Made by a program: the position numbers and the translations under genes
Assembly: GCA_021513715.1 (NCBI GenBank)
Contig: CP084167.1
Span: forward strand, 658,117 to 722,116
Source: Candidatus Heimdallarchaeum endolithica
GTDB lineage: Archaea; Asgardarchaeota; Heimdallarchaeia; Heimdallarchaeales; Heimdallarchaeaceae
Direction: 5' to 3'
Length of the DNA stretch: 64,000 bases
The notes under the pieces: generated by a model
The model's input: only the letters and a program-made list of their open reading frames with translations
The model's database searches: none
What the model was told of the DNA's origin: nothing
Part shown: positions 35,828 through 53,849 of the stretch, in pieces
Position numbering within the stretch: the stretch's first letter is position 1
Layout of the letters: the number at the start of each line of letters is the position of its first letter

Positions 35828-35967
35828 CCAATATCTCTGTTAATCTTTTTTTCCTAATATATTCTCCTTATTCCATGTTTAAATTTTTTTATCTAGGAAA
35901 CTTCGTTCAAAAAAAAGTTTAAAAATAACATTTAAAAATAAACATCAAAAAGAGCAGAAGAGAAAGA

Positions 35968-37221
35968 ATGTCGAGGATACATAGTAAAAATCCTATTGCT
36001 TCATTAAGTATTTTGATTTTTGGTCATTTTCTCAACCATTTCTATGCTTATGTGTTTGGTGCAGCAATGTTTGTGATAAGAAATGATATAGTTATGAACA
36101 ATAAACAAATTGGATTATTAGCAACTATTCAAATGGTAGTTTTTGCACTTTGCACTTTTATTGTAGGAGTGTTGGGAGATAAATGGTTAGCAAGTAAAAA
36201 ACTGTTTGTACCCGTAGGTATTTTCTTTATGGCACTACATCTGATAGTTGCATCAATAGCTCAAAGATATATCGTTCTTGCAATTGCAGCAGCGATTGTA
36301 GGTTTTGGTGCTTCTTTTTATCATCCTGTAGCCTATGCAGCAATAGCAGATCTCTATGAAGATAAAAAAGGATTGACTATGGCTCTAAATGCTGCTTTAG
36401 GAATGATTGGAACAGCTCTTACACCAGGAATAATTGCTTCATTTAGCGAGTGGATTGGATGGAGAAAATTCTTTCTATACTTTGGTCTGGGCGCAATAGT
36501 TTTAACTTTTCTAATGTTTATAGGATTTAATAGACTAATAGACTATAGCTTTGAAAAAGAAGAATTAGAACAAATAGAAAAAAGAAGAAATTCAATGACA
36601 ATGAAAGAAAGAATAATCTATTGGCTAAAATTTGAATTTCTAGCTATTCTAACTTTAGCTGTAATAACATGCTTGGCCTATTCTTCGCTTAGATCTGGCT
36701 TATACAAAATAGTGACACAGTTTTTAAGTATTATATTTGTAGATTACTATGATTATAACATATTAAATGCTGGTTGGTTATCATCAGTAATGCTGATAAT
36801 AGGTGGATTAACTGCCATTTTTGGAGGAATATTGAGCGATAAGAAAAATACTCCGTTAACTATGTTTATTTCTTTATTTGGTTCTACAATATCGATTTTG
36901 CTTATTTTTCTATTAGGCAAAAATACAGGAACTTGGGGAATAATAATTCTTTATTTTTCATTTATAGCTTTCTTACACTTCAGTAGTGCTGCAAGTACAA
37001 AATTTGTAACAGAGGAAGTACATCAAAAAAGTAGATCTACAGCTCTCGGTTTCTTGTTTGCGATTCCTAATACACTTGCAGCTATATTTCCTTGGTCATT
37101 TGGATACTTTATGGATAACTCACCGTTTGATATAACACTAATCTATCTGTTCTTCATTGCCTTAGTTGCAACAATGTTAACAATTATATTATTTGCGCGA
37201 GAGCTAAAAAAGAAAAAATAA
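35968..37221 (+). CDS. MFS transporter
   Basis: 12 predicted TM helices in two 6-helix halves. Confidence 0.7.
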   Translation: MSRIHSKNPIASLSILIFGHFLNHFYAYVFGAAMFVIRNDIVMNNKQIGLLATIQMVVFALCTFIVGVLGDKWLASKKLFVPVGIFFMALHLIVASIAQRYIVLAIAAAIVGFGASFYHPVAYAAIADLYEDKKGLTMALNAALGMIGTALTPGIIASFSEWIGWRKFFLYFGLGAIVLTFLMFIGFNRLIDYSFEKEELEQIEKRRNSMTMKERIIYWLKFEFLAILTLAVITCLAYSSLRSGLYKIVTQFLSIIFVDYYDYNILNAGWLSSVMLIIGGLTAIFGGILSDKKNTPLTMFISLFGSTISILLIFLLGKNTGTWGIIILYFSFIAFLHFSSAASTKFVTEEVHQKSRSTALGFLFAIPNTLAAIFPWSFGYFMDNSPFDITLIYLFFIALVATMLTIILFARELKKKK

Positions 37222-37355
37222 TGTGAATTTCGAATTACTTTTATTTTTTTTTATAATAATAATATTCAACCAAGCTGTCTTATTTCTATGTTGAATAAAA
37301 CAAAAAAGACTAATAAAAAAGAATATTAGTAAAAAAAGAAGAAAAATTAAGCTAA

Positions 37356-40300
37356 CTATAATTTTCCTTCATTTGAGCGCTCAAAAGATGAGAATTCATT
37401 AAGAAGGCGGTCAATAGCTTCTGTGATTTCTTCTTTACTACCTGATGCAAAAGTGAAAATAACCATTTCTCCATCTATCACAAGGAGATCTTCAGGAAGG
37501 GTAACTAACCATCTATACAATGCCCCACGATTAGTGAATTCTAATGCATCCACTAAATCTTGAATAGACACTTTTTTAGCTCTTTTTGCTAGTCCTCCTA
37601 AAGTATTTCTTCTTTTAATAGACATTTGCCATTCAGCAAAAGAATCAAATCCTTCATTTAACGCTTGTTGATATGTAGGATAATCTGGAAAACCATTTTT
37701 ACTTGCTTTGCTTGCAGAAGTAAAATCAGGAGCTTTCATTTTCTTAACAAAAATTAACCCATTTTTATTTTCAGCGCCTAGTTTTTGAGCTTCTTCATAT
37801 TCTTCATAATTAGAAAAACCACCATCTTTTATCTTTTTAGCAATATCATAACTAGGAGCCCCTAACTTCTTCGTTAGTTCAAATCTTTCTTTATTTTCAG
37901 CGCCTAGTTTTTGAGCTTCTTCATATTCTTCATAATTAGAAAAACCACCATCTTTTATCTTTTTAGCAATATCATAACTAGGAGCATTAGTTTGTAAAAT
38001 TTCTAAATTCATTTTTCTTTTATTTAAACGGTAGCGAATGAAAAATACCAAGCCAACTATAAATAATAAAAATAATGATCCGATAGGAATAATGTAAAAT
38101 TTTAAAGGGTTAGAACTTGATTTTAAGGGATTTGTATTAAATATTAACTCTATTTTATCGGAAAATCCATCGTTGTCTGTGTCTGTGTCTGTAGGGTCAG
38201 TATAATAAGTATTTACTTCTTCTTCATCAGTTAACCCATCGTTGTCTGTGTCTGTGTCTGTAGGGTCAGTATAATAAGTATATTCTTCTATGTTAGTTAG
38301 CCCATCATTATCATCATCTTCGTTTGCGTTACTTGTTAATGGGTCTAAATTGTAAAGTACTTCCCACCCATCTGGCATTCCATCATTGTCTGTGTCTGTG
38401 TCTGTAGGGTCAGTATAATAAGTATATTCTTCTATGTTAGTTAGCCCATCATTATCATCATCTTCGTTTGCGTTACTTGTTAATGGGTCTAAATTATAAA
38501 GTACTTCCCATCCATCTGGCATTCCATCATTGTCTGTGTCTGTGTCTGTAGGGTCAGTATAATAAGTATATTCTTCTATGTTAGTTAGCCCATCATTATC
38601 ATCATCTTCGTTTGCGTTACTTGTTAATGGGTCTAAATTATAAAGTACTTCCCATCCATCTGGCATTCCATCATTGTCTGTGTCTGTGTCTGTAGGGTCA
38701 GTATAATAAGTATATTCTTCTATGTTAGTTAGCCCATCATTATCATCATCTTCGTTTGCGTTACTTGTTAATGGGTCTAAATTGTAAAGTACTTCCCATC
38801 CATCTGGCATTCCATCATTGTCTGTGTCTGTGTCTGTAGGGTCAGTATAATAAGTATATTCTTCTATGTTAGTTAGCCCATCATTATCATCATCTTCGTT
38901 TGCGTTACTTGTTAATGGGTCTAAATTGTAAAGTACTTCCCATCCATCTGACATTCCATCTTCATCAGTATCAGCTTTTTTGGGATTTGTACCTAAGTAA
39001 TCTTCCAAAAAGGAGGATAAACTATCATTGTCAGGGTCTACATCTGCTAAATTATTTGTTCTGGAAAAGTTTCCTGTTCCACTTAAACCCTGCCAAAAAA
39101 CATTAATACCTGAAGGTTCAAATTCTAAAGCATAAATACTATAGTCAAAACTGCCTATTAATAAATCTAGTTTTCCATCCCCATTTATATCTGCGATAGC
39201 AGGAGAAGAGTCGATATCTCCACCTGTTGTGTATGACCATATTACTGTCCCATTTTGCCCATTAAGAACATAAATCCTGTCATCTTTACTTCCTATTATT
39301 ACATCTAGTTTTCTATCCCCATTTATATCTGCGATAGCAGGAGAAGAGTCGATATCTCCACCTGTTGTGTATGACCATATTACTGTCCCATTTTGCCCAT
39401 TAAGAACATAAATCCTGTCATCTCTACTTCCTATTATTACATCTAGTTTTCTATCTCCATTTATATCTGCGATAGCAGGTGAAGAGTAAATAACTCCACC
39501 TGTTGTGTATGACCATATTACTGTCCCATTTTCCCCATTAAGAGCATAGACTAAGCTATCATAACTTCCTATTATTACATCTAGTTTTCCATCCCCATTT
39601 ATATCTGCGATAGCAGGAGAAGCGCAGATATCATATCCTGTTATATATGACCATATTACTGTCCCATTTTCCCCATTAAGAACATAAATCCTGTCATCTC
39701 TACTTCCTATTATTACATCTAGTTTTCCATCCCCATTTATATCTGCGATAGCAGGAGAAGAGTCGATATCTCCACCTGTTGTGTATGACCATATTACTGT
39801 CCCATTTTGCCCATTAAGAACATAAATCCTGTCATCTTTACTTCCTATTATTACATCTAGTTTTCCATCCCCATTTATATCTGCGATAGCAGGAGAAGAG
39901 TCGATATCATATCCTGTTGTGTATGACCATATTACTGTCCCATTTTCCCCATTAAGAACATAAATCCTGTCATCTCTACTTCCTATTATTACATCTAGTT
40001 TTCCATCCCCATTTATATCTGCGATAGCAGGAGAAGAGTGAATAGCAGCACCTGTTGTGTATGACCATTCTAATAAACCAAATTTTCCTATAACATATAT
40101 TGTATTATCAACGCTACCTACAATTACTTCTGTAACTCCATCATTGTCTATATCCGCTGCAGAACATGAAGAAACAATATAATTGTTAGTTTTGTAGTAC
40201 CAAAGTCGATTAGAAGTCAATGAATTTACCGAACTAGAGAGAGATATCTGCTGTTCTGATAATGGTAAGGAATAACTAAAACTTGGTAAATAAAATGAAT

Positions 40301-40481
40301 CTGTGGACTGTTTAACTGAGGTCAAATTATCTTGTGAATTTGTTGTTGTAATATCTTGATAATTTGATAACACTAATAATACAATAAGCGTTGTAGATAA
40401 AATTATTCTCTTTTTTATAATAAAATTGAATAGCTCATCAAAAATATGACGCCATATTTCATTTTTTTTTGAATTAATCAT
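37356..40481 (-). CDS. Large surface-anchored repeat protein: beta-propeller (FG-GAP/PQQ-like) blades plus thrombospondin-type-3-like calcium-binding repeats
   Basis: N-terminal signal/anchor; 8 copies of YTTGGDIDSSPAIADINGDGKLDVIIGS..DDRIYVLNGENGTVIWS; 5 copies of DTDTDNDGMPDGWEVLYNLDPLTSNANEDDDNDGLTNIEEYTYYTDPT; TM helix; cytoplasmic tail with a duplicated 32-aa unit. Confidence 0.75.
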   Translation of the reverse strand: MINSKKNEIWRHIFDELFNFIIKKRIILSTTLIVLLVLSNYQDITTTNSQDNLTSVKQSTDSFYLPSFSYSLPLSEQQISLSSSVNSLTSNRLWYYKTNNYIVSSCSAADIDNDGVTEVIVGSVDNTIYVIGKFGLLEWSYTTGAAIHSSPAIADINGDGKLDVIIGSRDDRIYVLNGENGTVIWSYTTGYDIDSSPAIADINGDGKLDVIIGSKDDRIYVLNGQNGTVIWSYTTGGDIDSSPAIADINGDGKLDVIIGSRDDRIYVLNGENGTVIWSYITGYDICASPAIADINGDGKLDVIIGSYDSLVYALNGENGTVIWSYTTGGVIYSSPAIADINGDRKLDVIIGSRDDRIYVLNGQNGTVIWSYTTGGDIDSSPAIADINGDRKLDVIIGSKDDRIYVLNGQNGTVIWSYTTGGDIDSSPAIADINGDGKLDLLIGSFDYSIYALEFEPSGINVFWQGLSGTGNFSRTNNLADVDPDNDSLSSFLEDYLGTNPKKADTDEDGMSDGWEVLYNLDPLTSNANEDDDNDGLTNIEEYTYYTDPTDTDTDNDGMPDGWEVLYNLDPLTSNANEDDDNDGLTNIEEYTYYTDPTDTDTDNDGMPDGWEVLYNLDPLTSNANEDDDNDGLTNIEEYTYYTDPTDTDTDNDGMPDGWEVLYNLDPLTSNANEDDDNDGLTNIEEYTYYTDPTDTDTDNDGMPDGWEVLYNLDPLTSNANEDDDNDGLTNIEEYTYYTDPTDTDTDNDGLTDEEEVNTYYTDPTDTDTDNDGFSDKIELIFNTNPLKSSSNPLKFYIIPIGSLFLLFIVGLVFFIRYRLNKRKMNLEILQTNAPSYDIAKKIKDGGFSNYEEYEEAQKLGAENKERFELTKKLGAPSYDIAKKIKDGGFSNYEEYEEAQKLGAENKNGLIFVKKMKAPDFTSASKASKNGFPDYPTYQQALNEGFDSFAEWQMSIKRRNTLGGLAKRAKKVSIQDLVDALEFTNRGALYRWLVTLPEDLLVIDGEMVIFTFASGSKEEITEAIDRLLNEFSSFERSNEGKL
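38150..38960 (-). repeat. Intragenic tandem repeat, 144-bp unit, about 5.5 near-identical copies
   Basis: Unit recurs at 38371, 38515, 38659, 38803, 38947 (period exactly 144 bp); encodes the 48-aa Asp-rich repeat. Confidence 0.85.
39100..40080 (-). repeat. Intragenic tandem repeat, 138-bp unit, 7-8 near-identical copies
   Basis: ATCTGCGATAGCAGG recurs at 39189, 39327, 39465, 39603, 39741, 39879, 40017 (period exactly 138 bp); encodes the 46-aa propeller blade. Confidence 0.85.
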
Positions 40482-40596
40482 ATTTATAACCTTTACATTT
40501 ATATATTACAGATTCTCTGTTAAGAACTGCTTATTTATAAGTTGTAAATAATAAAGTGAAAACAAATATAAATAATTTACTTAATTTTTTCTCGGT

Positions 40597-40700
40597 TCTT
40601 TGTTCACTCAATAGACTTGGATTACACTTTTGGGCACTAGAGAAACATAGGGGTGATTCATAAATTTTTCTCCAGGAGTAAGGAGGTTAAGAGACTAATG
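40597..40700 (-). pseudogene. 3'-terminal fragment of an IS481-like transposase gene
   Basis: Reverse complement of 40621-40700 is near-identical to 44540-44627 (…TPGERFMNHPYVSLVPKSVTQVY*). Confidence 0.6.
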
Positions 40701-40729
40701 AGGTCAACTAAAATTGTAGTAAAAAAGTA

Positions 40730-41270
40730 AATCATGTCTAAAAAGTCTATTTCTTGACTTACACTGCCTGAAGGAGCAAAAGGTAATTGTAGCAGATTAG
40801 AGGACTGTAGAAAGTATTAAGGACACAAGAAGGTAAACGATCAAGGATAGGGGAAGAGAGATTTTGAGGAAACCGAAAACATGTTCAACACTACTACGAT
40901 ATTCAGGGTGATGATTATAGTTATTGAGACCAGAATAAAGACGATGAGCATGGTCTTATCCCTATTATTTATCCTAAAACTAACGCTCGTTATTCTGGTT
41001 ATCCACCATTTGTATCTATAGTCCATGAGTTGAAATTTTACGTAATTTCTTCAGGACTCTCCCCAACCAATCAACAAACTTAGCGAAAGTTGTGAAGACT
41101 GGCTTAAGAGAACATGAAAGACACAGTCTTAATTAAGTTCTCTAAGGGGTTCATCTCCTTATCCCGGGCACTCATAACTCCCAAAGGGAAGACCGGGTGT
41201 CGTAGGAGTGAAACCTACGTCTTTAAGCATATAGCTCAAGACACTAGATAAATTAGAATTAAATATATAA
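40730..41270 (-). pseudogene. 5'-truncated, indel-bearing copy of the IS4/IS5-like DDE transposase gene
   Basis: Minus-strand AHRLYSGLNNYNHHPEYRSSVEHVFGFLKISLP... aligns with the C-terminal half of the transposase at 48491-49435; degenerate right inverted repeat at about 40729-40747. Confidence 0.6.
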
Positions 41271-41286
41271 AGATAGCTGAAAAGTT

Positions 41287-41892
41287 GTGACACTCCCTAA
41301 TATCGTGTATGTATTCTTTATTTTTGCAAATGTGTTTCAGGTTGTTATTGGTCTGATAACTCCACAAACTAAAAATTTAGTTTATTACGTAAAAAAGTAT
41401 CTCATGGACATAGTAGGTCCTACAGCTGAAATTAATGAATTAAGTGTTATTACAAAAACAGGTGATATTAGTGTTAATTCACACACTACTGAAAATGTTA
41501 CAATTAACAACATTATGCTTATTTCAACTACAGGTATTATTCATTTTAGTTTAAGTGATGAAGGAATAAATTATATAAGCAATGCTCTTTCAACCACTAC
41601 TACAGGAAAGATAGAGTTCGATTTTGGAAATAATTGCACTTACAACGGAACAGAAATTAACCTTTCAACAACAACAGGAAAAATAGTTGTTTATTGTACA
41701 AATATGAATTACTTAGTCAATGTATCGTGGTTAATTTCTACAACTACTGGTTCTGTTTATGCAAATATTACTCAAGATTTTATTATTGAAAATCAATTAC
41801 AAGTTTCGTTTTTCATTACAGTAAATACTGGTTCAATAGAAGTATTAACTACTTTTCATGAAGAGCTTTTTTGTACATTTTTGTCAAATTAA
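41287..41892 (+). CDS. Hypothetical protein with STTTGKI repeats (DUF4097/adhesin-like)
   Basis: Three to four repeats of STTTG(K/S)I in a beta-rich sequence; GTG start, so the true start is uncertain. Confidence 0.35.
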   Translation: MTLPNIVYVFFIFANVFQVVIGLITPQTKNLVYYVKKYLMDIVGPTAEINELSVITKTGDISVNSHTTENVTINNIMLISTTGIIHFSLSDEGINYISNALSTTTTGKIEFDFGNNCTYNGTEINLSTTTGKIVVYCTNMNYLVNVSWLISTTTGSVYANITQDFIIENQLQVSFFITVNTGSIEVLTTFHEELFCTFLSN

Positions 41893-42430
41893 AAAATTGG
41901 TGTTTAAATAGTGAAAAGACATTATTAATGTAGAGAGTGAAAAAAAAAGATAGATGTTAAGAAAAATACTTACTCTCTAAGCTGGCACGGCGTGTCAGGA
42001 TAAAAAAAACATGCGCATAAAGAAAGAAATCAAAGAAAATTTGAATACGACTTAACTTTCCCGTGTGAGAGGATTTATTCATCCAGTTTCCACGGTGGAG
42101 GAGTGCTCAACCTTCTCCTCTGGCTCAATGAGTGTTTAGATCTCCCTCCTAGACAGATCTTTCCGAGAGCAAGATTGGCGTACAAAAATATTGTACAAAA
42201 ATTAAGTTGATGAAGATATAGGCTACCTTTTTGAAGCAAATACAGCTACAGGTACAATAAGCATTCCTAGTCAATCAACAAACTATGATACAGCTCTTAA
42301 CAAATACTATTTCTCTCTGCACACCAGTACTGGAGACATAAAAGCAGAGGTATAATCTACTACTTCTTTTTTTTGTTTTTTCTTTTCTAACTTACAATAA
42401 ATTAAAAAATGAACAAATAATTTTTTTTCT

Positions 42431-43576
42431 ATGAACGAAAAATACATCGATCAAATCAGAGCAAATTCTCCGACTTTAAATCAAGTAACTTTTTTAAATC
42501 ATGCAAGTACAGCACCCTTACACGGTAGAACACAGCAAGCGTTTCATGATTATTTGAATCAGTGGTCTAAGTATGATTTTGCTGAATCCAAAGAAAAGAG
42601 TCAACTAGCTCGTGAGGAATTTGCTAAACTAATTGGTGCTTCAAAGGAAGAAATACTTTTTACTTCTGATGTTACTCAAGGTACCAATCTTGCCGTTCAT
42701 ATGTTAGATTATGATGAAAAAAGTAACATTGTATGTTATTGGAATGATTATGCAGGACAAGTACATAGTGCTCTTTTCTTAAATAAAAAGAAAAAAATAG
42801 AATATCGTCCAGTCCCAGATCGTGAAGGTTACATTTATCCTGATGACTTTGCTGAAAAAATAGATAAGAATACTAAAATTGTTCTTTTGTCTCATGTTCA
42901 ATGGATTACTGGGTTTAAATCTGATATCAAAGAAATAACTAAAATTGCTCATGAAAATGGTGCCATGATTCTTGTAGATGTTATTCAGAGTTCAGGTGTG
43001 CTCGAGATTGATGTTAAAGACTGGGATGTTGATTTTCTTACTTCAGGAGTAGCTAAATGGCTTTTAGGACCAAATCAAGCAGGTTTCTTTTACATGAAAA
43101 AAAAGTTAATTGATGAATACGATCCACCTTTACCTGGTTACCAAGGAGCTGATTACGGCTCGATTGACTCACCTTATTGGAATGTTAAACAGATAGAATA
43201 TAGAGAAGGTATTGACAAGTTTCAAATTGCAAATATTGGACCAATGATGTATCAGATTGCATATGAAGGTATGAAAATAATCACTGAATATGGAATAAAA
43301 AAGGTGGAAAAAAGAGTTTTAGATTTAACTTCTTACCTTATCGAGAGAATTCAAGAACTTGGCAATTATGAGTTTTTAAGTCCTATTGAAGATAAATACA
43401 GAGCTGGAATTGTTAATTTCAAAGTTGAAAACAACATTGAGATAGCTAAAAAACTTTCTGAAGAAAAAGTAGTTGTTTCTTCAAGATATGGAGGAATCAG
43501 GATTAGTCCTCATTTTTATAATACCAAAGAAGACTTAGACAAATTTATAGAATTATTTAAGGCAATCAAAAAATAG
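42431..43576 (+). CDS. PLP-dependent class V aminotransferase / cysteine-desulfurase-fold enzyme
   Basis: SHVQWITGF ... ILVDVIQSSG ... SGVAKWLLGP with candidate PLP-binding Lys. Confidence 0.65.
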   Translation: MNEKYIDQIRANSPTLNQVTFLNHASTAPLHGRTQQAFHDYLNQWSKYDFAESKEKSQLAREEFAKLIGASKEEILFTSDVTQGTNLAVHMLDYDEKSNIVCYWNDYAGQVHSALFLNKKKKIEYRPVPDREGYIYPDDFAEKIDKNTKIVLLSHVQWITGFKSDIKEITKIAHENGAMILVDVIQSSGVLEIDVKDWDVDFLTSGVAKWLLGPNQAGFFYMKKKLIDEYDPPLPGYQGADYGSIDSPYWNVKQIEYREGIDKFQIANIGPMMYQIAYEGMKIITEYGIKKVEKRVLDLTSYLIERIQELGNYEFLSPIEDKYRAGIVNFKVENNIEIAKKLSEEKVVVSSRYGGIRISPHFYNTKEDLDKFIELFKAIKK

Positions 43577-43688
43577 ACTTAAATTCGCTCTATCTTACTT
43601 TTTTTGAACTCACTTATTTCTCTGTGTATACTCCACTCACATTGGTAACAAATAAATAGAAGTGGGTTACGTGGGTAAGTGATTAAAT

Positions 43689-44627
43689 ATGAATAAGACC
43701 GAACGTAACCTGGAGAAACTAAGAAAAATTGTAGTTAAAAAAGCTTTGGAAGGAGAGAAGATAAAAGAGATAGCTCACAAGTATATGGTGAGTAGGAAGT
43801 TTGTGTATAAGTGGTTGAAGAGGTTCAGAGAGAACCCTGAAGGAGAATGGTGGAAAGATAGATCCTCCAGACCAAAAACTATACACAGGAAAGTGGATGA
43901 GGAGTTAAAAGAGAGGATAAGGGAGTTAAGAATAAAACAAGGAATGAATGTGGAGAAGATAGCTTATTTGTTGAAGAGAGAAGGAAAAGCACTCTCTCAG
44001 ACGACAGTGACGAAAGTAATAAAAGAGTTAGGTCTTCCTTTATGGGTCAATAGAAAAAAGAGGAAGAGACCTCGATACAAGAGTTTTGAACGTCAAAAAC
44101 CTAACGAACTCTGGCAAATAGATGTGAAAGGACCATTCTGGGTAGAAGAACAGGGACAACATCTCCATCTCATAACCTTGATAGACGACCACTCACGATT
44201 CTGTCTGGGAGCTAAATTCCACCCTTTTGCACCAAAAAAAGAGCAGATAATAAATCTACTAGAGGAAGCAATAAAAGAGTACGGTTACCCCGAGTCTATC
44301 CTCACGGACAATGGAGCACTCTTCTCTTCCGTTAGAGGAGGAACAAGTACCTTCTCCCGTTGGTGTCAAACAGAAGGAATAAAACACATCAGAGCTAGAG
44401 TTTTTCACCCCGAAACATGTGGAAAAGTAGAAAGACTACATGGGACAATCATCCGTGAGATGGAAAGATTAGGTCTAAAATACTGCAACCCCGACCTCTC
44501 CTACTACCGCTCTTACTACAATTTTAGTCGTCCTCACCAATCTCTTAACTTCCTCACCCCAGGAGAAAGATTTATGAATCACCCCTATGTTTCTCTAGTA
44601 CCCAAAAGTGTAACCCAAGTCTATTGA
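43689..44627 (+). CDS. IS481-family-like transposase (HTH plus rve integrase core, DDE)
   Basis: N-terminal HTH; WQIDVKGPF...LIDDHSR...LTDNGALF...HPETCGKVER; GC content higher than flanking DNA. Confidence 0.75.
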   Translation: MNKTERNLEKLRKIVVKKALEGEKIKEIAHKYMVSRKFVYKWLKRFRENPEGEWWKDRSSRPKTIHRKVDEELKERIRELRIKQGMNVEKIAYLLKREGKALSQTTVTKVIKELGLPLWVNRKKRKRPRYKSFERQKPNELWQIDVKGPFWVEEQGQHLHLITLIDDHSRFCLGAKFHPFAPKKEQIINLLEEAIKEYGYPESILTDNGALFSSVRGGTSTFSRWCQTEGIKHIRARVFHPETCGKVERLHGTIIREMERLGLKYCNPDLSYYRSYYNFSRPHQSLNFLTPGERFMNHPYVSLVPKSVTQVY

Positions 44628-44722
44628 GTAAACACTCACTTATTTCTCTGCCTAAATTTTATATAGTAGTACCTTTTTATCCTCTTAATACAAATACATA
44701 TGACCAATACGGGTGATTTAAA

Positions 44723-47593
44723 TTGAAAAAAAAGAAACTTGTAGAGCCTGAGGAAGTAAAAGAAGAAGTTTATTGGCATGCGTTGAAAAAAGAAGAAATT
44801 TTTGAACGCTTAAATACTTCTGAGAATGGTCTTAGCTCTGAAGAAGTCACAAAAAGACACGAAATATACGGTTTAAATAAGATAATAATCAAAGAACGTT
44901 TTAAAATTCTAAAAATGATTATTGAACAATTTCAAGATTTCCTTGTACTGTTACTAGTTGTAGCTGGGACTATAAGTTTAGGTGTAGGTATTTCTTATTC
45001 TAGTCCTGGAAACATTTCTACTGAGATTTATGATGCAATAGCTATTTTTGCAATAGTATTTCTAAATGCAGGAATAGGATTTGCTCAAGACTATAAATCT
45101 AATCAAGCGTTAGAAAAGCTCAAAGAGTATTTTGAACAAGATGTTGTTACTATAAGAAATGGAAAGGAGTTTATTGTTCCTTCTTCAGACCTTGCTCCTG
45201 GGGATATTATAGTAATAGAAGCAGGAGATAAGGTTCCAGCGGATTGTAGAATATTGGAATTGAACAATTTGAAGATAGATGAAGCTCCTCTCACTGGAGA
45301 ATCAAAATCTATAACCAAAAACTTGGAACTTGTTAAAAAAGATGCGAGGATACATGATAGAAAAAATATGGTCTTTATGGGAACAACTTGTGTTTACGGA
45401 AGAGCTAAACTTGTAGTAGTTAAGATAGGAATGGAAACAGAGATGGGTGAAATCGCTAAGTTAACCCAAGTTAAAACAGAGATGACACCTTTACAAAAAT
45501 CTCTTGACAGATTTGGTAAAAGTCTAGGAGCAGTAATTCTGGCTTTATCTGCCGTTATAATGATAGTAGAAATTATTTCAGAGATTCATTTTTACGGTTC
45601 AGAAAAAACTGTTTTTGCGATCATTTTTGAAAGCTTTGAAACAGCGATTGCACTAGCTATTTCAGCTGTTCCAGAGGGATTAGCAGCAGCGATAGTAATC
45701 ACATTAGCTATAGGAGTATCACGTATGGCAAAAAAACGAACAATTGTTTCGAGATTACCTGCCGTTGAAACTTTAGGAAGTGTCAATTACATATGCTCTG
45801 ATAAGACTGGAACCTTAACAAGAAATGAGATGACTGTTAAAGAGATATGGACAGCTGATGATAAAAATATTGAAGTGGAGGGAAGTGGGTATCTAAAAGA
45901 GGGTAGATTTATGCAAGGAGAAAAAGAGTTTGAACCCTCAAAATCTCCTGCACTTATGAAAGTGCTAGAAATATCTTATCACTGTAATAACTCTTCTTTA
46001 ATAAGAAATGGTAATTCCATACAAGTTAGAGGAGACCCCACTGAAGCAGCTCTTTTGGTTGTAGCAGAGAAAGGTGGATTAACTGAAGCTGACAAAAAGG
46101 AAAGAATCCACGAATTGTTCTTTGATAGCGATAGAAAAAGAATGACCACAATTCACAGAGATGGAGATAAAAATATCGCTTTAATGAAAGGTTCTCCTCC
46201 TATTGTTTTACAAAGGTGTAAATACATACTAGTCAATGGAAAAGTTGAACCATTAACTGCAGAGAAACAAAAAACTATAGAAGAAGCAAATATAAATATG
46301 TCATCAAAAGCTCTTCGAGTTCTTGCTATGGCTTACCGTGAAGTTCCTGAAGAATTTGATAGAGATGACTATGACTCTATAGAAGTAGATATGATTTTTG
46401 TAGGATTAACAGGAATGATAGACCCTGCAAGACCTAATGTAAAAGAAGCAATTCAAGAATGTAAAGATGCTGGAATAACTACAATAATGATTACTGGAGA
46501 TCAAAAAGAAACAGCTGTAGCTGTAGCTAAAGAGATTGGAATTCTCACATCTGAAGAAGATCTTGTCGTAAATGGTGAAGAATTAGATTTAATGACTGAA
46601 GAAGAGTTAATAGAAAAAATAGAGAAAATAAAAGTTTACAGCAGAATGAGCCCCAAAGATAAGTACAGAGTTGTTGAAACTTTACAAAAACTGGATAACT
46701 TTGTAGCTGTAACTGGAGATGGAGTTAATGATGCACCAGCACTAAAGAAAGCAGATATAGGTGTAGCCATGGGTATTACTGGAACAGATGTTACTAAAGA
46801 AGTTGCAGATATGGTTATTACAGATGATGCTTTTAATACGATAGTCGATGCAGTAGAAGAGGGACGTAATATCTTTGCTAATATGAAGAGATTTATCAGA
46901 TATACTCTAAGTAGTAATTTTGACGAACTATTTGCAGTATTGCTTATTACCTCATGGTTAGGAGTTTTACCTTTTACTCCCCTACAGATTCTATTCCTTA
47001 ACTTGCTAACAGACGCATTACCAGCTTTAAGTTTATCTTTTGAGCCATATGATCCTAAGTTAATGAAAAAACCTCCAAGAGGAAAGCATGATTCATTCCT
47101 TCGAGAAATGTATTCTTTTGCAGCGATATCAGGTATAGTTGCTTTCTTTGCTTCTGTTTCAATGTTCTTGCTGGTTTATAACCATTTGGGACCACAAAAA
47201 TTCGGTTCGATAAGTATTCCAGAGAATAAAGAACAAATAGTAGCATATGCACAATTTATGGCTTTCATTGTAACCCTTACATTTGAGCTAGTTTTTGTAT
47301 TCATTGCAAGAAATGATAATGATGTTAAAGTATATGAAACTAATCCTTTCAAGAATATGATGCTTATCTGGGCAGTTCTTAGTTCATTTGTATTACTTGG
47401 ACTAGTAATTTTTGTTCCTGTCCTTCAACAAATATTTACATCATTCAACAACTACTACTACGTTCCTGATATAGTTGATTGGGGATGGATCTTACTTTTC
47501 ACAGTAGGATTTAATATTCTAATTGAACTTTTCAGAGAACTCATGATGACTAAAAGAATGAAGAAATTTGCTCACAAAATTGGGTTTGCTTAA
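44723..47593 (+). CDS. P2-type cation-transporting P-type ATPase
   Basis: DKTGTLT phosphorylation site, PEGL in TM4, TGDGVNDAPALKKADIGVAMG hinge; 956 aa. Start appears to be TTG at 44723; the first in-frame ATG is 65 codons downstream. Confidence 0.85.
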   Translation: MKKKKLVEPEEVKEEVYWHALKKEEIFERLNTSENGLSSEEVTKRHEIYGLNKIIIKERFKILKMIIEQFQDFLVLLLVVAGTISLGVGISYSSPGNISTEIYDAIAIFAIVFLNAGIGFAQDYKSNQALEKLKEYFEQDVVTIRNGKEFIVPSSDLAPGDIIVIEAGDKVPADCRILELNNLKIDEAPLTGESKSITKNLELVKKDARIHDRKNMVFMGTTCVYGRAKLVVVKIGMETEMGEIAKLTQVKTEMTPLQKSLDRFGKSLGAVILALSAVIMIVEIISEIHFYGSEKTVFAIIFESFETAIALAISAVPEGLAAAIVITLAIGVSRMAKKRTIVSRLPAVETLGSVNYICSDKTGTLTRNEMTVKEIWTADDKNIEVEGSGYLKEGRFMQGEKEFEPSKSPALMKVLEISYHCNNSSLIRNGNSIQVRGDPTEAALLVVAEKGGLTEADKKERIHELFFDSDRKRMTTIHRDGDKNIALMKGSPPIVLQRCKYILVNGKVEPLTAEKQKTIEEANINMSSKALRVLAMAYREVPEEFDRDDYDSIEVDMIFVGLTGMIDPARPNVKEAIQECKDAGITTIMITGDQKETAVAVAKEIGILTSEEDLVVNGEELDLMTEEELIEKIEKIKVYSRMSPKDKYRVVETLQKLDNFVAVTGDGVNDAPALKKADIGVAMGITGTDVTKEVADMVITDDAFNTIVDAVEEGRNIFANMKRFIRYTLSSNFDELFAVLLITSWLGVLPFTPLQILFLNLLTDALPALSLSFEPYDPKLMKKPPRGKHDSFLREMYSFAAISGIVAFFASVSMFLLVYNHLGPQKFGSISIPENKEQIVAYAQFMAFIVTLTFELVFVFIARNDNDVKVYETNPFKNMMLIWAVLSSFVLLGLVIFVPVLQQIFTSFNNYYYVPDIVDWGWILLFTVGFNILIELFRELMMTKRMKKFAHKIGFA

Positions 47594-47711
47594 TTTTTTT
47601 TTCATTTTATTTTGTTATTTTTCTATTAATAAATGGTTTAATGCTATTCAATAATGTAAAAAAGAAAGACTTAGTTGATTAAACTTTGTCTCACTATTAA
47701 TCCCATTTATC

Positions 47712-48296
47712 TTATTTGTCAAATAGTATTTTGATTTTATCATCTATTTCTTTAGCTTCTTGTTTTTTTCCCATTTGTGATAAAACTCTAGAAAGTAATG
47801 ATAAAATTTCCTTAGAACTTGGATTTATTTCAATTGCTTTCTTTAACAAATCTTCTGCTTCCTCCAACTTGTTTTTTTCAGCTTTTAGTTTAGCTAATTC
47901 AAAAAGAGCAGAACTATTAGTACTATCACTTTCTATTGCTTTAGTAAAAGCATTCTCTGCTTGTTCAATATTATCAAGTTTCAAGTAACACACGCCCAAA
48001 TTAAACCAAGTTATAGTGTCAGAATTGTTAATAGCTAACGCCTTATTGTAAAGTTCTAATGCTTTTTCTAAATCACCTTTTTTTTCTGTTAAAACACCTA
48101 AGTTGGTTAAACATTGAACATAATTTGGGTCATACTCCAACGCAGTCTTATATGCATTAATGGCTTCATCTATTTCTCCTTTTGACTCAAGAATCGCGCC
48201 TAGATTAAACCAACCAAAAGGGTCTGATGGATTTTCCCTTATATATTCTTTAAGATCTTCTATTATTTCAGATATTTCTTCACCCATTTTTATCAC
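47712..48296 (-). CDS. TPR-repeat protein
   Basis: Five to six canonical 34-aa TPR units (W-LG-Y-A-F-A-P pattern). Confidence 0.7.
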   Translation of the reverse strand: MIKMGEEISEIIEDLKEYIRENPSDPFGWFNLGAILESKGEIDEAINAYKTALEYDPNYVQCLTNLGVLTEKKGDLEKALELYNKALAINNSDTITWFNLGVCYLKLDNIEQAENAFTKAIESDSTNSSALFELAKLKAEKNKLEEAEDLLKKAIEINPSSKEILSLLSRVLSQMGKKQEAKEIDDKIKILFDK

Positions 48297-48460
48297 TGTA
48301 ATTATTGAACTAGAATCATTCCTTTTTTTCTTTTATATATTTTGCCTAAATAAATTTAAGAAGTAGCATTATAGTAAGATTTTTTTTTAAAATATTACCT
48401 TTTTTTTTAATGAACAATACATTTACAATAACAATTAAATATCAAATGTAATTCTAGTAT

Positions 48461-49464
48461 AAGCATGTCCAAAAATTAATTTTTATTAATGTGGGGGTTT
48501 ATGTCGGAAGTATGAATTTCTTTCAGATCATAGACCCCCACAAAGCAAGAGAATTCATAATCATTAATGAACCTTTCCTTAAGAAACTGGTGAAAGAGGA
48601 ACCGAGAGAAAGCAAGAGAGGGAGAAAGAGAATAGCAGAAAGATGGGTGATACTGGCTTTAGCAATCATTGCTAGAATAGAAGGGATAGCTTGGAGGAAG
48701 TTAGAGGAAAAGTTGTCTTTATGCGATTTTTTGATAGAAGAGGGGTGGATGAAGAAGATTCCTTCTAAATCTACTTTTCATGCAGTGTGGAGAGCGACAG
48801 AAAGTAAAATCTTAGAGCAGTGGATAATAGATTTAGGTAGGGAAATAGTGAGGAAAAAAGGCTTGAAAGCTATGGCAGTGGATAGTTCAGGGTTTAAAAT
48901 CCGTCAAGCTTCTGTTTGGCGTTTTCTCAAATGGTCAAGAGGGACACTAAAGAAAACCTCTAAACTTTTCTGGAAGATACACCTTATAGTTGGTTTACCC
49001 TCTCGAGCTATAGTCTCTCTCGCTCATTCTGCTAGTAACACTCACGATAGTAAAGTCTTCGGTTTACTCTGGCAGAAACTTCCTTCTGCACTCTTGAGAC
49101 CTTTCTTGCGATTTTATGGAGACTGTGCCTACTGGACAGAAAATATCGTTGGACTTCTTAGCCAACATTCCTTTTTCCCTGTTATTCCCCCAAAAAGTAA
49201 TGCTCGTTATCCCTCTCCTCCTCCCCTCGGACCAATAGTTCAAGCTCATCGTCTCTACCCTGGTCTGTATCGTCGTAATCATCATCCCGAGTATCGTAGT
49301 AGTATTGAACACGTCTTTGGTCTCCTTAAACTCTCTCTTCCCCCAATCCTTGATCGTTTACCCTCCACCATCCTCTCTACCTTGTACAGTTCTCTTCTCT
49401 GTTACAACTACCTTTTACTCCTTCGGACCGTTTAGTTGGTGAAAAAGAATTTTTGGACATGCTT
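48461..49464 (+). mobile_element. IS4/IS5-family-like insertion sequence (1004 bp) with perfect 17-bp terminal inverted repeats
   Basis: Left IR AAGCATGTCCAAAAATT at 48461-48477; right IR is its exact reverse complement at 49448-49464; flanked by direct repeat TAGTAT at 48455-48460 and 49465-49470. Confidence 0.8.
48491..49435 (+). CDS. DDE transposase (IS4/IS5-like)
   Basis: AVDSSGF, YGDCAY and IEHVFG...K motifs; the ATG at 48512 may be the true start. Confidence 0.75.
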   Translation: MGVYVGSMNFFQIIDPHKAREFIIINEPFLKKLVKEEPRESKRGRKRIAERWVILALAIIARIEGIAWRKLEEKLSLCDFLIEEGWMKKIPSKSTFHAVWRATESKILEQWIIDLGREIVRKKGLKAMAVDSSGFKIRQASVWRFLKWSRGTLKKTSKLFWKIHLIVGLPSRAIVSLAHSASNTHDSKVFGLLWQKLPSALLRPFLRFYGDCAYWTENIVGLLSQHSFFPVIPPKSNARYPSPPPLGPIVQAHRLYPGLYRRNHHPEYRSSIEHVFGLLKLSLPPILDRLPSTILSTLYSSLLCYNYLLLLRTV

Positions 49465-49491
49465 TAGTATATTTGGGAAAAAGAGGTAAAA

Positions 49492-50838
49492 ATGACTCCA
49501 AAAGATTCTAAAAAACCTTCAGAACTAGAAAAAGCTATTTTAGAAGCAAAAGCAAAGTTACAAAATGTAGTTGCTAAAAAAGAAGGTAAATATATAAGAA
49601 AAACAGAGCTAGAGAATGCTATAAATGAAGCGTTAAAAAGCTTAAAGCCTGTTTCTGAAGAATTAATAAAGAAGAAAATAAAAACCAGTTCATTTAAAGA
49701 TGAACTAGTAAAGGCAAAGTCAGAACTAAAGCAAGTAAAACAAGAAAAAAAGAGAGTTACAAAAAACGATATGGAATTAGCTATTAAAGAAGCTATTAAA
49801 AATCTAAAACCATTAACTGAAAAAGGGAAAAAGCAAGTTTCTTCAAAAGGAGAATTAGAATTAGCTATTTTAGATGCTTTTTCAAAGCTAATTGAAGTTT
49901 CAGATGAACAGAAAAATTATGCTTTAACAAAGAAAGAACTAAAAATTATAATTAAGGATGCTAAAAATAGATTAAAGAAAGTACCAGAAAAAGAACTCAA
50001 ACATGCATTAACAAAGAAAGAACTAGAGCACGAGCTGAGAGACTTAAAAGGAAAACTAAAACCAGTCCCAGAACAAGTAAAAGTACCAGAACTTTCGATT
50101 AAACAACTTAGAACTGCCATTAAAGAAGCAAAAGTAAGATTAAAACCTGTTCCAGAGAATTTAAAGAGTATAAGTTCTATCTCAGTTGGTAGATCAATAA
50201 AAAAAGAAGGAGAAAAAATAAAAAGGAAACTATTGCCTATTCCAGGAGATGCTAAAACTTTCGAAATTCAGAACATAGAGCACATTAAACTCTTTTCTGC
50301 AGAAAGGTTGGATTTTAATAAATTCATTTCAAAACTAGAAAAACAAAAACAACAACCACTGCGTAAAATAATAATTAATCCAAAAACAAAGTTTTGTAAA
50401 ATAGAGTTAATGAACAAAGATAACCCTAATTCTCCGTATAACATTACAGGAGGAGGAGATATTTTAGAATTCACTTCAACTTACCGTTTCTTGTTTAAAC
50501 ATGGGTATATAAAAATAGAGAATAACTATCCCTTACTCTTTTCAGATAAACAATGGATTGTCTGGTATTTAAGAGAAAAAATAGAATTAACTTTCGTGGA
50601 CATAGCTTTTGCAATGAATGAAACAGTTAGAAACGTTAGAAACCTGTTTAATGAAGCTGAAAAAAGAATAAATCAAATATTAGATTTTGTTGTAGATGAA
50701 GAGCATTACCAATTAGTAGCAGCACATGCAATGAAAAGAAAAGGAGTACGTATCCAACAGATTGGAGATACTATAATTGAGCCTAAAATTACAGAAAAAT
50801 ATCTCATTGAACAACAACAACTAGAAGAATTAACTTAA
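49492..50838 (+). CDS. Lysine-rich repeat protein with C-terminal HTH-like segment
   Basis: At least six repeats of EL..AI.EA...LKPV in the N-terminal 250 aa; C-terminal LTFVDIAFAMNETVRNVRNLFNEAEKRI resembles a sigma-region-4/LuxR-type HTH. Confidence 0.45.
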   Translation: MTPKDSKKPSELEKAILEAKAKLQNVVAKKEGKYIRKTELENAINEALKSLKPVSEELIKKKIKTSSFKDELVKAKSELKQVKQEKKRVTKNDMELAIKEAIKNLKPLTEKGKKQVSSKGELELAILDAFSKLIEVSDEQKNYALTKKELKIIIKDAKNRLKKVPEKELKHALTKKELEHELRDLKGKLKPVPEQVKVPELSIKQLRTAIKEAKVRLKPVPENLKSISSISVGRSIKKEGEKIKRKLLPIPGDAKTFEIQNIEHIKLFSAERLDFNKFISKLEKQKQQPLRKIIINPKTKFCKIELMNKDNPNSPYNITGGGDILEFTSTYRFLFKHGYIKIENNYPLLFSDKQWIVWYLREKIELTFVDIAFAMNETVRNVRNLFNEAEKRINQILDFVVDEEHYQLVAAHAMKRKGVRIQQIGDTIIEPKITEKYLIEQQQLEELT

Positions 50839-51094
50839 ATTGAAGAACTTGAAAAGAAAGTAGAAATACCAAGAGAGTGGGTTATAAAAACAGCTTATAA
50901 AATAGAAACTCTGGAAGGAGGTTATTATCTATGGAAAGAGTTTCTAGGAGCATTAAACAAGGATTCTCTACTGATGATAGAAAACGACAGTTTACCCCAT
51001 GAAAAAATTTTTTGTATAAATTCTTTAGGTTTTTAAATAAATTGCTTAATTAATAAATAGAGAAAAGAAAGTGAAGAAGAAAAAGGATTAGAAA

Positions 51095-52609
51095 ATGGAG
51101 AAAATAGTGAGAACATTAAGAGTAAGAGTAAAAACAGAAAAATTAACGAAGTTCAAAAAAGATAGAATGAGAAAGATAACAGGAAGAGATACTAGAATAA
51201 TAGAAGAATATGTAAAAATAATAAGAAAAGAAGAAGAAAAAGTAATAAGAAAAATAAGCAAACAAGGAGAGATAAGACTAAAAGTGCATAAAGGCAAGTT
51301 AGATGAACTAACACTAACAACAACAAAGAAAACAAATAAGAAAAAAAGGACAGTTGTACCCTATGATCTCAAAAAAAAGTTTCCTAATTGTTCTCACGAT
51401 GAATTTCAAGAGTGTAGAGATGTAGCAGTACAACTTTATGAACAAGGATATAACAAAAAAAAGAACAAAAAAAGAAAAAAAGGATATATTTTACCACCAG
51501 TAAAACGAGCAAGAAAACAACTAATCAATAAAAATAGATTTATCATAAAACATTTGCCTAAAGGGAAAAACACTCTTTCTCGTTGGTGGGTAGGGATAAG
51601 AGACTCATTAGACACACAAAAAAGAAAAAAACGAACACATCGAAGACTATGGATACCACTAGAAATGAGTGAATATCACCAAAAAGAAATAAGAAAAGGA
51701 CAAGTAAAAAGTCTAGAATTAAAATATAACTCACAAAAAAACAGTTGGTGGGTAAATTTTCAGATAACAATTATTCCTCAAGCAGATCTCTACAAGAAAA
51801 AAAAAGTTGACTCTTCTCTTCTTCCTCCAGCTGTGCTGGGAATAGATCTGGGAGAAAAAATACCTGGAGCAGGAGTGTTATTAACATCAACAGGTAAAAT
51901 ATCTCCCAATCATATTTTCTTCTGGAAAATGAAAGAATGGAAAAAAAGGAAGTATATCTATCAACAGAAAATAAGAAGATTGCAACGAAAACTTGCAAAA
52001 AAGAAGAATACATGTAAAGACAAAAGAAGCAATAAAGGATATCAAACATTAAAAAAATTAAGAAAAAGATATCAGACGCTCTCTCATGCTTATTTATATG
52101 CTTTTATCAATGAGTTGTGGAAAGATATTGTTGAACTTACACAGGATTATAATTTAGTCGTTGTTGTTGGTTACCCCAAGGGAGTACACTCGAAATTAAG
52201 AAAAAAAGTAATGAATCAAGACTACAGACCACAGAACTCTTCTACTCGTTTTACTCGTAAAAAGGTTCACCCGTGGAATTACTACCAAATAGTTACTCTT
52301 CTTCGACGAATGTGTCTTCTAAATGGGTTAGAACCCGAACGTATCCTCACCTTACAGGAATATCTTACCTCTTCTCTTTGCTCAAAATGTGGACGAAAGA
52401 CTATTCGACCTGTTAGAGGTCTTGTTTATTGTTCTCATTGTCATTATACTCTTCACTCTGACCTTACCGGTGCAATCAACATCGGGAAATTGTTTCTTCG
52501 TTTTCTTTTTCGCCCCCGAGCATCTACACTAGTTGATTATCTTACTGGACAACACTTTAGTCTCACCTTTTATACTTCCTTCAGGGGTCTCAACCAGTGG
52601 TTGAAATAG
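51095..52609 (+). CDS. tnpB: TnpB-like RuvC nuclease (IS200/IS605 OrfB, Cas12/Fanzor-related)
   Basis: RuvC-I LGIDLG, RuvC-II region around FINELW, zinc finger CSKCG...CSHCH, RuvC-III HSDLTGAINIG; lysine/arginine-rich N-terminal half. Confidence 0.8.
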   Translation: MEKIVRTLRVRVKTEKLTKFKKDRMRKITGRDTRIIEEYVKIIRKEEEKVIRKISKQGEIRLKVHKGKLDELTLTTTKKTNKKKRTVVPYDLKKKFPNCSHDEFQECRDVAVQLYEQGYNKKKNKKRKKGYILPPVKRARKQLINKNRFIIKHLPKGKNTLSRWWVGIRDSLDTQKRKKRTHRRLWIPLEMSEYHQKEIRKGQVKSLELKYNSQKNSWWVNFQITIIPQADLYKKKKVDSSLLPPAVLGIDLGEKIPGAGVLLTSTGKISPNHIFFWKMKEWKKRKYIYQQKIRRLQRKLAKKKNTCKDKRSNKGYQTLKKLRKRYQTLSHAYLYAFINELWKDIVELTQDYNLVVVVGYPKGVHSKLRKKVMNQDYRPQNSSTRFTRKKVHPWNYYQIVTLLRRMCLLNGLEPERILTLQEYLTSSLCSKCGRKTIRPVRGLVYCSHCHYTLHSDLTGAINIGKLFLRFLFRPRASTLVDYLTGQHFSLTFYTSFRGLNQWLK

Positions 52610-52775
52610 ACCTATGTACTATTATACCATAATGGTAGAATACTTAGTACTCGTGGAGTGAAGAGTTCTACTCTTCTTTATGCGTCCCACGATTCCTAGA
52701 TGATGTCAGTATGCTCAAACATCTGTTTCAGCGTTTGTATTCTTCCACTGACGTAGTAGGAGAAAATTGTACAAA
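52610..52775 (+). ncRNA. Candidate TnpB-associated guide-RNA scaffold (omega-RNA/reRNA-like) and element right end
   Basis: Immediately after the tnpB stop: near-palindrome TACCATAATGGTA (52625-52638), nested stems CGTGG...GAAGAG-loop-CTCTTC...CCACG (52649-52700), ending near palindromic TTGTACAA (52767-52774); core conserved with compensatory changes at 33721-33800. Confidence 0.4.
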
Positions 52776-53849
52776 AAATTAACTCATGAAGAAGAATACT
52801 TGATAAACGCTATAGGATTAGGAGGAGAAATAATACCTGACATCAAGAGCAATTTCAAAAAACTAATTGAAATATTCGCAGAAGCTCCTGACGATCTTGT
52901 AAAAATAGGAGATACAGCCTTTTTCATGGGTTATATGGATAATATTTATTCTAGCCAGTTTTGGACAATAAAAAACTTCGTTAAAGGAAACAAAAAAAAT
53001 TGGAAAAAAGATTTTATAAAAATAGCAATAAAAGCATATTCAAAAGCTCTAGATAATATTATTCCATCAGTTAACCCAGTAAAGTACGGTTTGCTAATAA
53101 ACGATTTAGGAGTATTTTACTTATTTCTGTCAGAATTAGAGCAAACTAAAAAACACACTATAGAAGCAATCAAAAATTTACTTGATGCAAAAAAAGCATT
53201 ACCTTTAGAGTTCTTTAAAACAAAACATAGTGATATTTGTTATAATTTAGGACTGGCTCATTTATTTTTGTCTAAAATAGAAGAAAAAGAAGAAAATATT
53301 AAACAAGCTATTCTAAACTTTAACGTTGCTCTGCAAGGAAGAACGTTAAGAATGTATCCATTGAAACATGCTATAACACAAGTCAATCTAGGAATTGTCT
53401 ACCAAAAATTAGCTGAAATCGAAGAAACCTCTTTAAATTGTACATTAAGTATAGAATCTTATAACAATGCTTTGAGATCCAACACTCTAGACGTCATGCC
53501 AACAGAAGCAGCGATGATATATAACAACATAGGTCTATCTTATTGCACTTTATCTGATGTACAGGAAACAGAATACAATATTTCACAAGCTTTAATTGTT
53601 TTAAATGATGCTTTGACCATCAGAAATGAAGCACAGTTTCCTGTTGAATATGCAATTACAACAAGTATTTTAGGAAAAGCTTATACAATTCTAGCAACAG
53701 TAAAAGAAAAAAAAGAATATTATGAAAAGGCAATATCAGCATTTAATAAAACAATTAAGATATTCATCAAGAAATATGAAGACTTCTACCAAGCAATAAT
53801 ACAAGAAAAAGAAAAAGTAGAAGAGAAACTAAAAGAAATAGCGCAATAA
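52767..53849 (+). CDS. TPR-like helical repeat protein
   Basis: Recurrent (N/Y)N(L/I)G..Y..L...E pattern every ~40 aa; start ambiguous (TTG at 52767, TTG at 52800 or a downstream ATG). Confidence 0.5.
   Translation: MYKKLTHEEEYLINAIGLGGEIIPDIKSNFKKLIEIFAEAPDDLVKIGDTAFFMGYMDNIYSSQFWTIKNFVKGNKKNWKKDFIKIAIKAYSKALDNIIPSVNPVKYGLLINDLGVFYLFLSELEQTKKHTIEAIKNLLDAKKALPLEFFKTKHSDICYNLGLAHLFLSKIEEKEENIKQAILNFNVALQGRTLRMYPLKHAITQVNLGIVYQKLAEIEETSLNCTLSIESYNNALRSNTLDVMPTEAAMIYNNIGLSYCTLSDVQETEYNISQALIVLNDALTIRNEAQFPVEYAITTSILGKAYTILATVKEKKEYYEKAISAFNKTIKIFIKKYEDFYQAIIQEKEKVEEKLKEIAQ

Follow-up and report, generated by a model that had tools for sequence, protein, structure and literature searches.

A Recently Inserted IS5-like Insertion Sequence in the Chromosome of Candidatus Heimdallarchaeum endolithica

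Layout of the Element

The window, i.e., the 64-kb stretch of Candidatus Heimdallarchaeum endolithica DNA analyzed here, carries a complete insertion sequence at positions 48461–49464 (plus strand). The element is 1,004 bp long and has a GC content of 40.9%, versus 30.5% for the window. Its ends are terminal inverted repeats. The left repeat, AAGCATGTCCAAAAATT, occupies 48461–48477 on the plus strand and was found by direct reading, by a repeat search, and by a 17-mer scan. The right repeat, at 49448–49464 on the minus strand, is the reverse complement of the left one, with 17 of 17 bp matching. In the repeat search, the inverted repeat could be extended to 23 nt at 91%. Without mismatch, the 17-mer end is found at just its two terminal sites in the whole window. 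Two copies of the hexamer TAGTAT, both read directly, flank the element at 48455–48460 and 49465–49470. Given the high AT content, two flanking hexamers would be identical by chance with a probability of ~6e-4, as estimated from base composition.

The element has a single long, intact ORF. This is the transposase gene, extending from 48512 to 49435 on the plus strand and encoding 307 residues from its ATG. An in-frame GTG at 48491 provides a 314-residue alternative (ORF 48491–49435), and the reading frame is open from the first base of the element. An initial annotation of this DNA had reported perfect 17-bp inverted repeats, an intact transposase ORF, and a GC content above that of the host, and each of these descriptions holds. 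The GC skew flips inside the ORF (window 48600–49400), from +0.39 in the first half to −0.36 in the second. The flip probably reflects an N-terminal half rich in Lys, Glu, and Arg and a C-terminal half rich in Pro, Ser, and Leu.

The insertion point is intergenic. A TPR gene lies on one side, and on the other lies a gene that is itself now disrupted further downstream. The next ORF begins with an ATG at 49492, 22 bp downstream of the right TAGTAT. This ATG is the start codon of the already disrupted gene, the N-terminus of which is intact in comparison with P0064.

The host, Ca. H. endolithica, belongs to the Asgard archaea, and its closed genome of 3.33 Mb appeared in 2022 (PMC8813620). Seven other proteins encoded in the window are identical to Ca. 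H. endolithica proteins (UJG44110–UJG44132). The genome paper reports 11 transposase/integrase families, of which seven are multiplied, and a maximum of 27 copies of a family in one genome; the families are counted there, and no element-level description is offered (PMC8813620).

The Transposase

The protein matches Pfam DDE_Tnp_1 (PF01609) over residues 126–280, scoring 43.9 bits (E = 3e-11), above the gathering score of 23. The sole other Pfam match at E ≤ 1 is a weak one to DUF4096. No NCBIfam IS model passes its curated cut-off with this transposase. The best model is transpos_IS5_2 (NF033579), at 70.9 bits and a cut-off of 140, followed by weaker matches to IS1182, IS5_3 (30.4 vs. 110), IS4_1 (27.5 vs. 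115), and IS5_4 (26.4 vs. 140). transpos_IS5_2 is also the best NCBIfam model for 34 of 34 diverse homologues, with a best E-value of 1.9e-27.

The catalytic residues are D124, D204, and E266 in the 307-residue numbering, which correspond to D131, D211, and E273 counted from the GTG. The glutamate is part of the motif R262-x3-E266-x6-K273 (R269-x3-E273-x6-K280 from the GTG). D131, D211, E273, R269, and K280 are invariant in alignment A1, and D124, D204, R262, and E266 are invariant among the 34 homologues (alignment A3). An AF2 model based on the 34-sequence alignment (pLDDT 85.2, pTM 0.86) positions D124 on a strand, D204 just past a strand, and E266 on a helix. The distance from the second D to the E is 62 residues, and in the model this segment contains helixes and one short strand, with no large inserted domain. 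Foldseek retrieved distant DDE enzymes only from the PDB, i.e., piggyBac, piggyBat, Mu, Mos1, and retroviral integrases, with E ~1e-3, and a sequence-profile search of PDB sequences found no solved relative. Among 49 database homologues, all those with a source name are from Heimdallarchaeota; one member of a homologue cluster is labelled Helarchaeota.

IS5-family elements are expected to be ~0.8–1.5 kb long and to have short terminal inverted repeats around a single transposase ORF (or a pair joined by frameshift). With 1,004 bp, one ORF, and perfect 17-bp inverted repeats, the element has an IS5-type architecture. The classical IS5 subgroups have fixed duplication lengths, of 2–4, 8, or 9 bp per ISfinder. 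As these subgroups are generally described, none is fitted by the duplication lengths of 5–8 bp found here (see below). Given the sub-cut-off NCBIfam scores and the 28% identity to the nearest named element, the subgroup, and even strict family membership, is not established. The transposase works like those of the IS5 family and is best filed with it, as a divergent lineage. The element had initially been described as IS4/IS5-like. The intact DDE_Tnp_1 insertion sequence is upheld in that description, and the NCBIfam models refine it to IS5-like rather than IS4-like.

Other Copies and the Length of the Target Duplication

A scan of one genome per species yielded nine copies (L001–L009), which belong to Ca. 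H. aukensis. Together with L027, on a JGI metagenome contig, they make ten full-length copies outside the window, at 90.7–96.5% identity. Eight of the nine aukensis copies align over bases 1–1004, and the alignment of the ninth, a more decayed copy, begins at base 7 (91.4–96.5% identity for the nine). All of the aukensis copies start AAG...TTCAAAAATT and finish ...GGACATGCTT, and their flanks are unrelated. The initial annotation had raised the prospect of copies with different termini. Since the ten further copies align to the same ends, the 17-bp repeats are terminal, not internal, and its claim stands.

Perfect duplications flank 10 of the 11 full copies, which lie in complete genomes or longer contigs, and the length ranges from 5 to 8 bp. 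The duplication is 5 bp at L001 (TTTTA) and L008 (TAATA); 6 bp at the window copy (TAGTAT), L003 (CTTAAG), L009 (TGTTAA), and L005 (TATATA); 7 bp at L002 (AGTTAAC), L004 (TTTGAAT), and L027 (AATTAAG); and 8 bp at L006 (TTTTCTTA). L007 has an imperfect 5-bp repeat, TATTC on one side and TATTA on the other. A repeat of a given length must abut the element on both sides, so a longer repeat is not a chance extension of a shorter one. Thus, the duplication length is truly variable. No duplication is visible at L010 and L019, two short metagenome contigs, where its absence may reflect chimeric assembly or recombination between copies.

The metagenome contigs sharing the 30-bp left end are mostly relatives of ~74% identity on short contigs. 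A search of viral contigs for the IS end gave no match. L010 (JGI contig Ga0190360_1099645) carries, at 413–828, a related IS that has lost its interior: 416 bp remain, in which positions 1–244 are joined to positions 850–1004 and both inverted repeats are retained. It looks like a miniature non-autonomous copy. In Ca. H. aukensis, L001 and L008 (CP084166.1, ~904346–905349 and ~911465–912469) lie ~6 kb apart in the same orientation, one copy being intact and the other frameshifted. The pair is a possible composite-transposon arrangement.

Empty Sites and Recent Mobility

The same locus is found without the element in two sets of relatives. L021–L024 are syntenic contigs of Heimdallarchaeaceae MAGs, reached via P0065, a homologue of the downstream gene. 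Their flanks are 82–85% identical to those of the window, and in them the segment corresponding to window 47644–48442 runs straight into that corresponding to 49458–51032. Both TAGTAT copies of the window align to one TAGTTT in L021, L022, and L024. L028 (GCA_054387635.1), a contig of a conspecific strain, was reached via the 666-residue neighbour. It is 98.4% identical to window 44634–48461 and 96.6% identical to window 49465–51032, and its junction has one TAGTAT, to which the duplication aligns, and lacks the element. An empty site with a single hexamer proves the insertion and its 6-bp duplication. The absence from L028 makes the insertion younger than the divergence of the two conspecific strains. 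The empty-site 23-mer had no match in JGI metagenomes. Elsewhere at this locus, L021–L024 carry a 2.9-kb cluster of three ABC-transporter genes between the P-type ATPase gene and the TPR gene (L021 539–3460); the cluster is absent from the window (47623–47644) and from L028.

The contigs L022 and L021, with 99.94% identity over 6,986 bp, are set apart by one copy of the element. The L022 copy is 94.8% identical to the window copy, and L021 is uninterrupted at that place. This difference is an insertion polymorphism between nearly identical genomes. Within the Ca. H. endolithica genome, the window transposase is 100% identical to P0057, which has at least four accessions there, and it is 99% identical to P0001. 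The TAGTAT target-site duplication that had initially been proposed is thus confirmed by the single hexamer of L028, and the proposed recency of the insertion is borne out by the empty L028 site, with its 96–98% identical flanks, and by the accessions of the identical protein.

When the window copy is compared with two intact aukensis copies, dN/dS is 0.06–0.10, with dS of 0.13–0.22. The transposase is under strong purifying selection. The 307-residue ORF is kept in two of the nine aukensis copies; the other seven are frameshifted and are still 92–95% identical. Copies of the two species share 91–96.5% identity, versus an average nucleotide identity of 88% for the two Heimdallarchaeum species (PMC8813620). 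This comparison suggests that the insertions post-date the split or that the element has been exchanged.

The Left End

The first 30 bp of the element are identical even in relatives that are ~74% identical overall. Those contigs were retrieved by that exact 30-mer, so the information lies solely in how this segment contrasts with the remainder of the element. The 30-bp segment includes the inverted repeat and a TATA-box-like stretch, TTTTTATTAAT, at 48480–48490 (plus strand). This stretch lies ~27 nt upstream of the ATG and is invariant in 17 of 17 aligned copies and relatives. By archaeal promoter geometry, it is a putative promoter that would produce a leaderless or near-leaderless mRNA.

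A potential RNA hairpin extends from 48490 to 48542 on the plus strand (element positions 30–82), and its upper part encloses the ATG at 48512. The hairpin has an energy of −28.9 kcal/mol (z = −6.0), and 90.7% of its cells are paired across 17 sequences. A covariation test on the 17 sequences gave no support. Rfam has no match at the gathering threshold over the window and none at E ≤ 0.1 over 40400–53000. By analogy with known elements (see the last section), the element's own transcript would start near the ATG and lack the 5′ arm of the hairpin, and in read-through transcripts the folding may conceal the start codon. The annotation of another MAG has a MASE3-domain gene that continues into the transposase frame (P0049).

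A Relic of a Related Element and Neighbouring Rearrangements

The element had initially been considered the likely active parent of a degraded copy at 40730–41270. This parentage is not supported. Only the segment 40730–40952 (minus strand) is homologous to the element. It is a ~224-bp terminal part that corresponds to element positions 781–1004 (76% identity); its inverted repeat, AATCATGTCTAAAAAGT, is decayed, and its coding remnant is split over two frames. It is nearer to another subfamily, that of the metagenome contig L019, to which it is 81.6% identical. Since the homology is partial, at 76%, and the L019 subfamily is closer, the relic, judged by sequence similarity, does not descend from the window copy and represents another, older member of that clade. 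The remainder, 40953–41270, has no significant similarity except for a weak 33-residue plus-strand match at 40943–41041. The adjacent segment 40601–40722 is an inverted fragment, 89% identical to the end of an IS481-family element at 43625–44633.

Beyond the element studied here, the window differs from L028 by three insertions and an inversion. The insertions are the IS481-family element, a TnpB-only element, and a 342-bp insert. The IS481-family element has an ORF at 43689–44627 (plus strand) with rve integrase core and HTH domains; its product is identical to an H. endolithica protein named 'IS481 family transposase'. The GC bump at 43800–44600 is due to this element. A 17-bp direct repeat, ACTCACTTATTTCTCTG, bounds it at 43608–43624 and 44634–44650. 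As ACTCACTTATTTCTCTG is single-copy in L028 (3453–3469), the repeat represents an unusually long target duplication.

The TnpB-only element (Cas12f/OrfB_IS605-like, 504 residues) extends over ~1.75 kb, from ~51033 to 52778, with its ORF at 51095–52609 on the plus strand. The insertion follows ...CCCCATGAA, and the right end of the element likewise finishes ...CTCATGAA. The gene split by this insertion, the one whose start codon at 49492 lies next to the IS5-like element, is intact as an 856-residue ORF in L028, and in the window it also bears an in-frame TAA at 50836–50838. Thus, the 448- and 360-residue ORFs of the window are pseudogene pieces. Remnants of a TnpB element are found at 33434–33799. 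The 342-bp insert, at 41865–42206, is GC-richer and absent from L028, and its end, ...TTGTACAAAAATTAAGTTGATGAAG, resembles the right end of the TnpB element. Derivation from the TnpB element was rejected, as the insert has no significant similarity to it or to anything else in the window; it has no Rfam match either. It may be a small non-autonomous element.

The inversion relative to L028 involves window 33910–41403. L028 1–1025 corresponds to window 34934–33910 on the minus strand, and L028 1600–2061 corresponds to window 41403–41864. About 570 bp of a zinc-ribbon gene are missing, and one of the breakpoints adjoins relics (40601–40952 and 33434–33913). The sequence GTAAAAAAGTA, followed by an inverted-repeat-like AATCATG or TCTCATG, is found at 33892–33909, 40719–40736, and 41388–41405.

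Proposed Explanation and Alternatives

We conclude, with high confidence, that the Ca. H. endolithica chromosome contains here an IS5-family-type insertion sequence that is autonomous and has transposed recently. The conclusion draws on what is shown above: the layout and termini of the element, its target duplication, the empty site, the polymorphic insertion, and the purifying selection on the transposase. A plausible course of transposition is as follows. The single gene would supply the 307-residue DDE transposase, with a predicted RNase-H-like fold. If it acts as in other DDE insertion sequences, this transposase would bind both 17-bp terminal inverted repeats and cleave the ends, and the freed ends would be joined to target DNA opened by a staggered cut. 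Once repaired, the stagger would leave the 6-bp TAGTAT duplication at this site, and staggers of 5–8 bp would account for the other copies. The conserved left end would carry the element's own TATA-like promoter, and the hairpin could hide the start codon in transcripts entering from outside, as in the protection of IS10 and IS50. We infer the chemistry (cut-and-paste or copy-out), the presence of the promoter, and the function of the hairpin.

A more far-reaching proposal is tentative, and we regard it as possible but doubtful. According to it, the element would stand for a deep lineage within the IS5 superfamily that is essentially confined to Heimdallarchaeia. Its target duplication varies from 5 to 8 bp, and its left end would combine the transposase binding site, the promoter, and a hairpin hiding the start codon. 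The element would be currently active and would have moved between sympatric Heimdallarchaeum species after their divergence.

The weightiest objection to an active element is that the copy could be structurally intact and yet immobile, i.e., a young, silent copy, the multiple copies being left from a past burst. The seven frameshifted copies among the nine in Ca. H. aukensis are in keeping with such a history. We consider it rather improbable, in view of the perfect inverted repeats and duplication, the four or more accessions of the identical protein in this genome, the absence of the insertion from a strain with 96.6–98.4% identical flanks, the 99.94%-identical contigs that differ by one insertion, and the strong purifying selection on the ORF. 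There is next to no chance that the repeats and the hexamer are coincidental and that the ORF is a stationary (domesticated) transposase-derived gene. The AT-rich flanks speak for coincidence, and nothing more does, whereas the same ends recur in ten further full copies at unrelated sites, and the whole 1,004 bp is precisely missing at orthologous sites, where one hexamer is left; the latter refutes this reading.

Two other readings concern the affiliation of the element. IS4-family elements are typically 1.3–1.6 kb long, make 9–12 bp duplications (ISfinder descriptions), and have a long D-to-E spacer with an inserted domain. DDE_Tnp_1 is common to IS4 and IS5, and the weak transpos_IS4_1 match, at 27.5 bits, likewise allows an IS4-family element (Tn5/IS10/IS4-like). 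However, that match is far below both its cut-off of 115 and the IS5_2 score, and just 7 of the 34 homologues show it. Moreover, the D-to-E spacer of 62 residues has no large inserted domain in the model, and both the 1.0-kb length and the 5–8 bp duplication are shorter than the values usually given for IS4. An IS4 affiliation is therefore very unlikely. An archaeal relative of the eukaryotic PIF/Harbinger transposons would be of special interest in an Asgard host. PIF/Harbinger transposases are distantly related to IS5 and make up a eukaryotic branch; Harbinger elements have a 3-bp TWA duplication and usually a second, Myb-like gene. This distant kinship is in favour of the idea, to which we nonetheless give scant credence. 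The element's duplication is 5–8 bp, not the 3-bp TWA, its single ORF leaves no second Myb-like gene, and no Harbinger-type Pfam match appears even at E ≤ 1. Also in its favour, a 2026 survey assigns to Ca. H. endolithica the most 'eukaryotic-like transposon' calls among Asgard genomes, but the calls were made by homology with RepeatClassifier and are not linked to the element described here (PMC13343696).

Significance

The preferred reading, an autonomous IS5-type element, makes this an ordinary mobile element of known type, apparently unnamed and recently active. Its peculiarities are minor: the variable duplication length, the lineage-restricted, divergent transposase, and the conserved hairpin at the start codon. 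What is gained is the exact boundaries, the duplication, and proof of recent mobility for one multi-copy family that was merely counted in the genome paper. The stretch differs from its sister strain almost entirely by mobile-element insertions and the inversion. The results should be of use in the curation of Asgard genomes and in strain typing, and the element is a possible starting point for an Asgard genetic tool. Beyond annotation they carry little weight, and no current view is challenged.

Comparison with Named Elements

The closest family is IS5, transpos_IS5_2 being the nearest model. The element shares with it a length of ~1 kb, a single DDE_Tnp_1 transposase of ~300 residues, short inverted repeats, the D..D..E residues, the R-x3-E-x6-K motif, and a short D-to-E spacing. 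It differs in its duplication, which varies from 5 to 8 bp, and in that the sampled clade is almost entirely from Heimdallarchaeota.

Among named elements in the searched collections, the nearest is ISAae1 of the Aquifex aeolicus plasmid ece1, the protein of which is annotated as 'IS5-like element ISAae1 family transposase'. The layout is similar, with a 321-residue transposase and ~1.04 kb between imperfect inverted repeats of ~30 nt. The two proteins align from the N-terminal region up to and including the E motif, with 28% identity over 246 columns; in ISfinder, elements count as one and the same IS from ≥95% amino-acid or ≥90% nucleotide identity. In contrast, the end sequences are unrelated, and the host is a bacterium. 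ISH1-type elements, an archaeal IS5 subgroup, are 0.9–1.15 kb long and have a single ORF and an 8-bp duplication, longer than that of most IS5 subgroups. By this general description, the element resembles them in its archaeal host, size, and single ORF, but its duplication is not fixed at 8 bp.

The left end invites comparison with IS10 and IS50, in which the fold-back of read-through transcripts protects the element from outside activation. These belong to other families and another domain of life, and the hairpin described here is without covariation support. As in IS10 and IS50, a stable hairpin is possible in which sequence near the left end pairs with the first codons and the start codon is enclosed. 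The putative internal promoter is likewise placed so that the element's own transcript would omit the 5′ arm.
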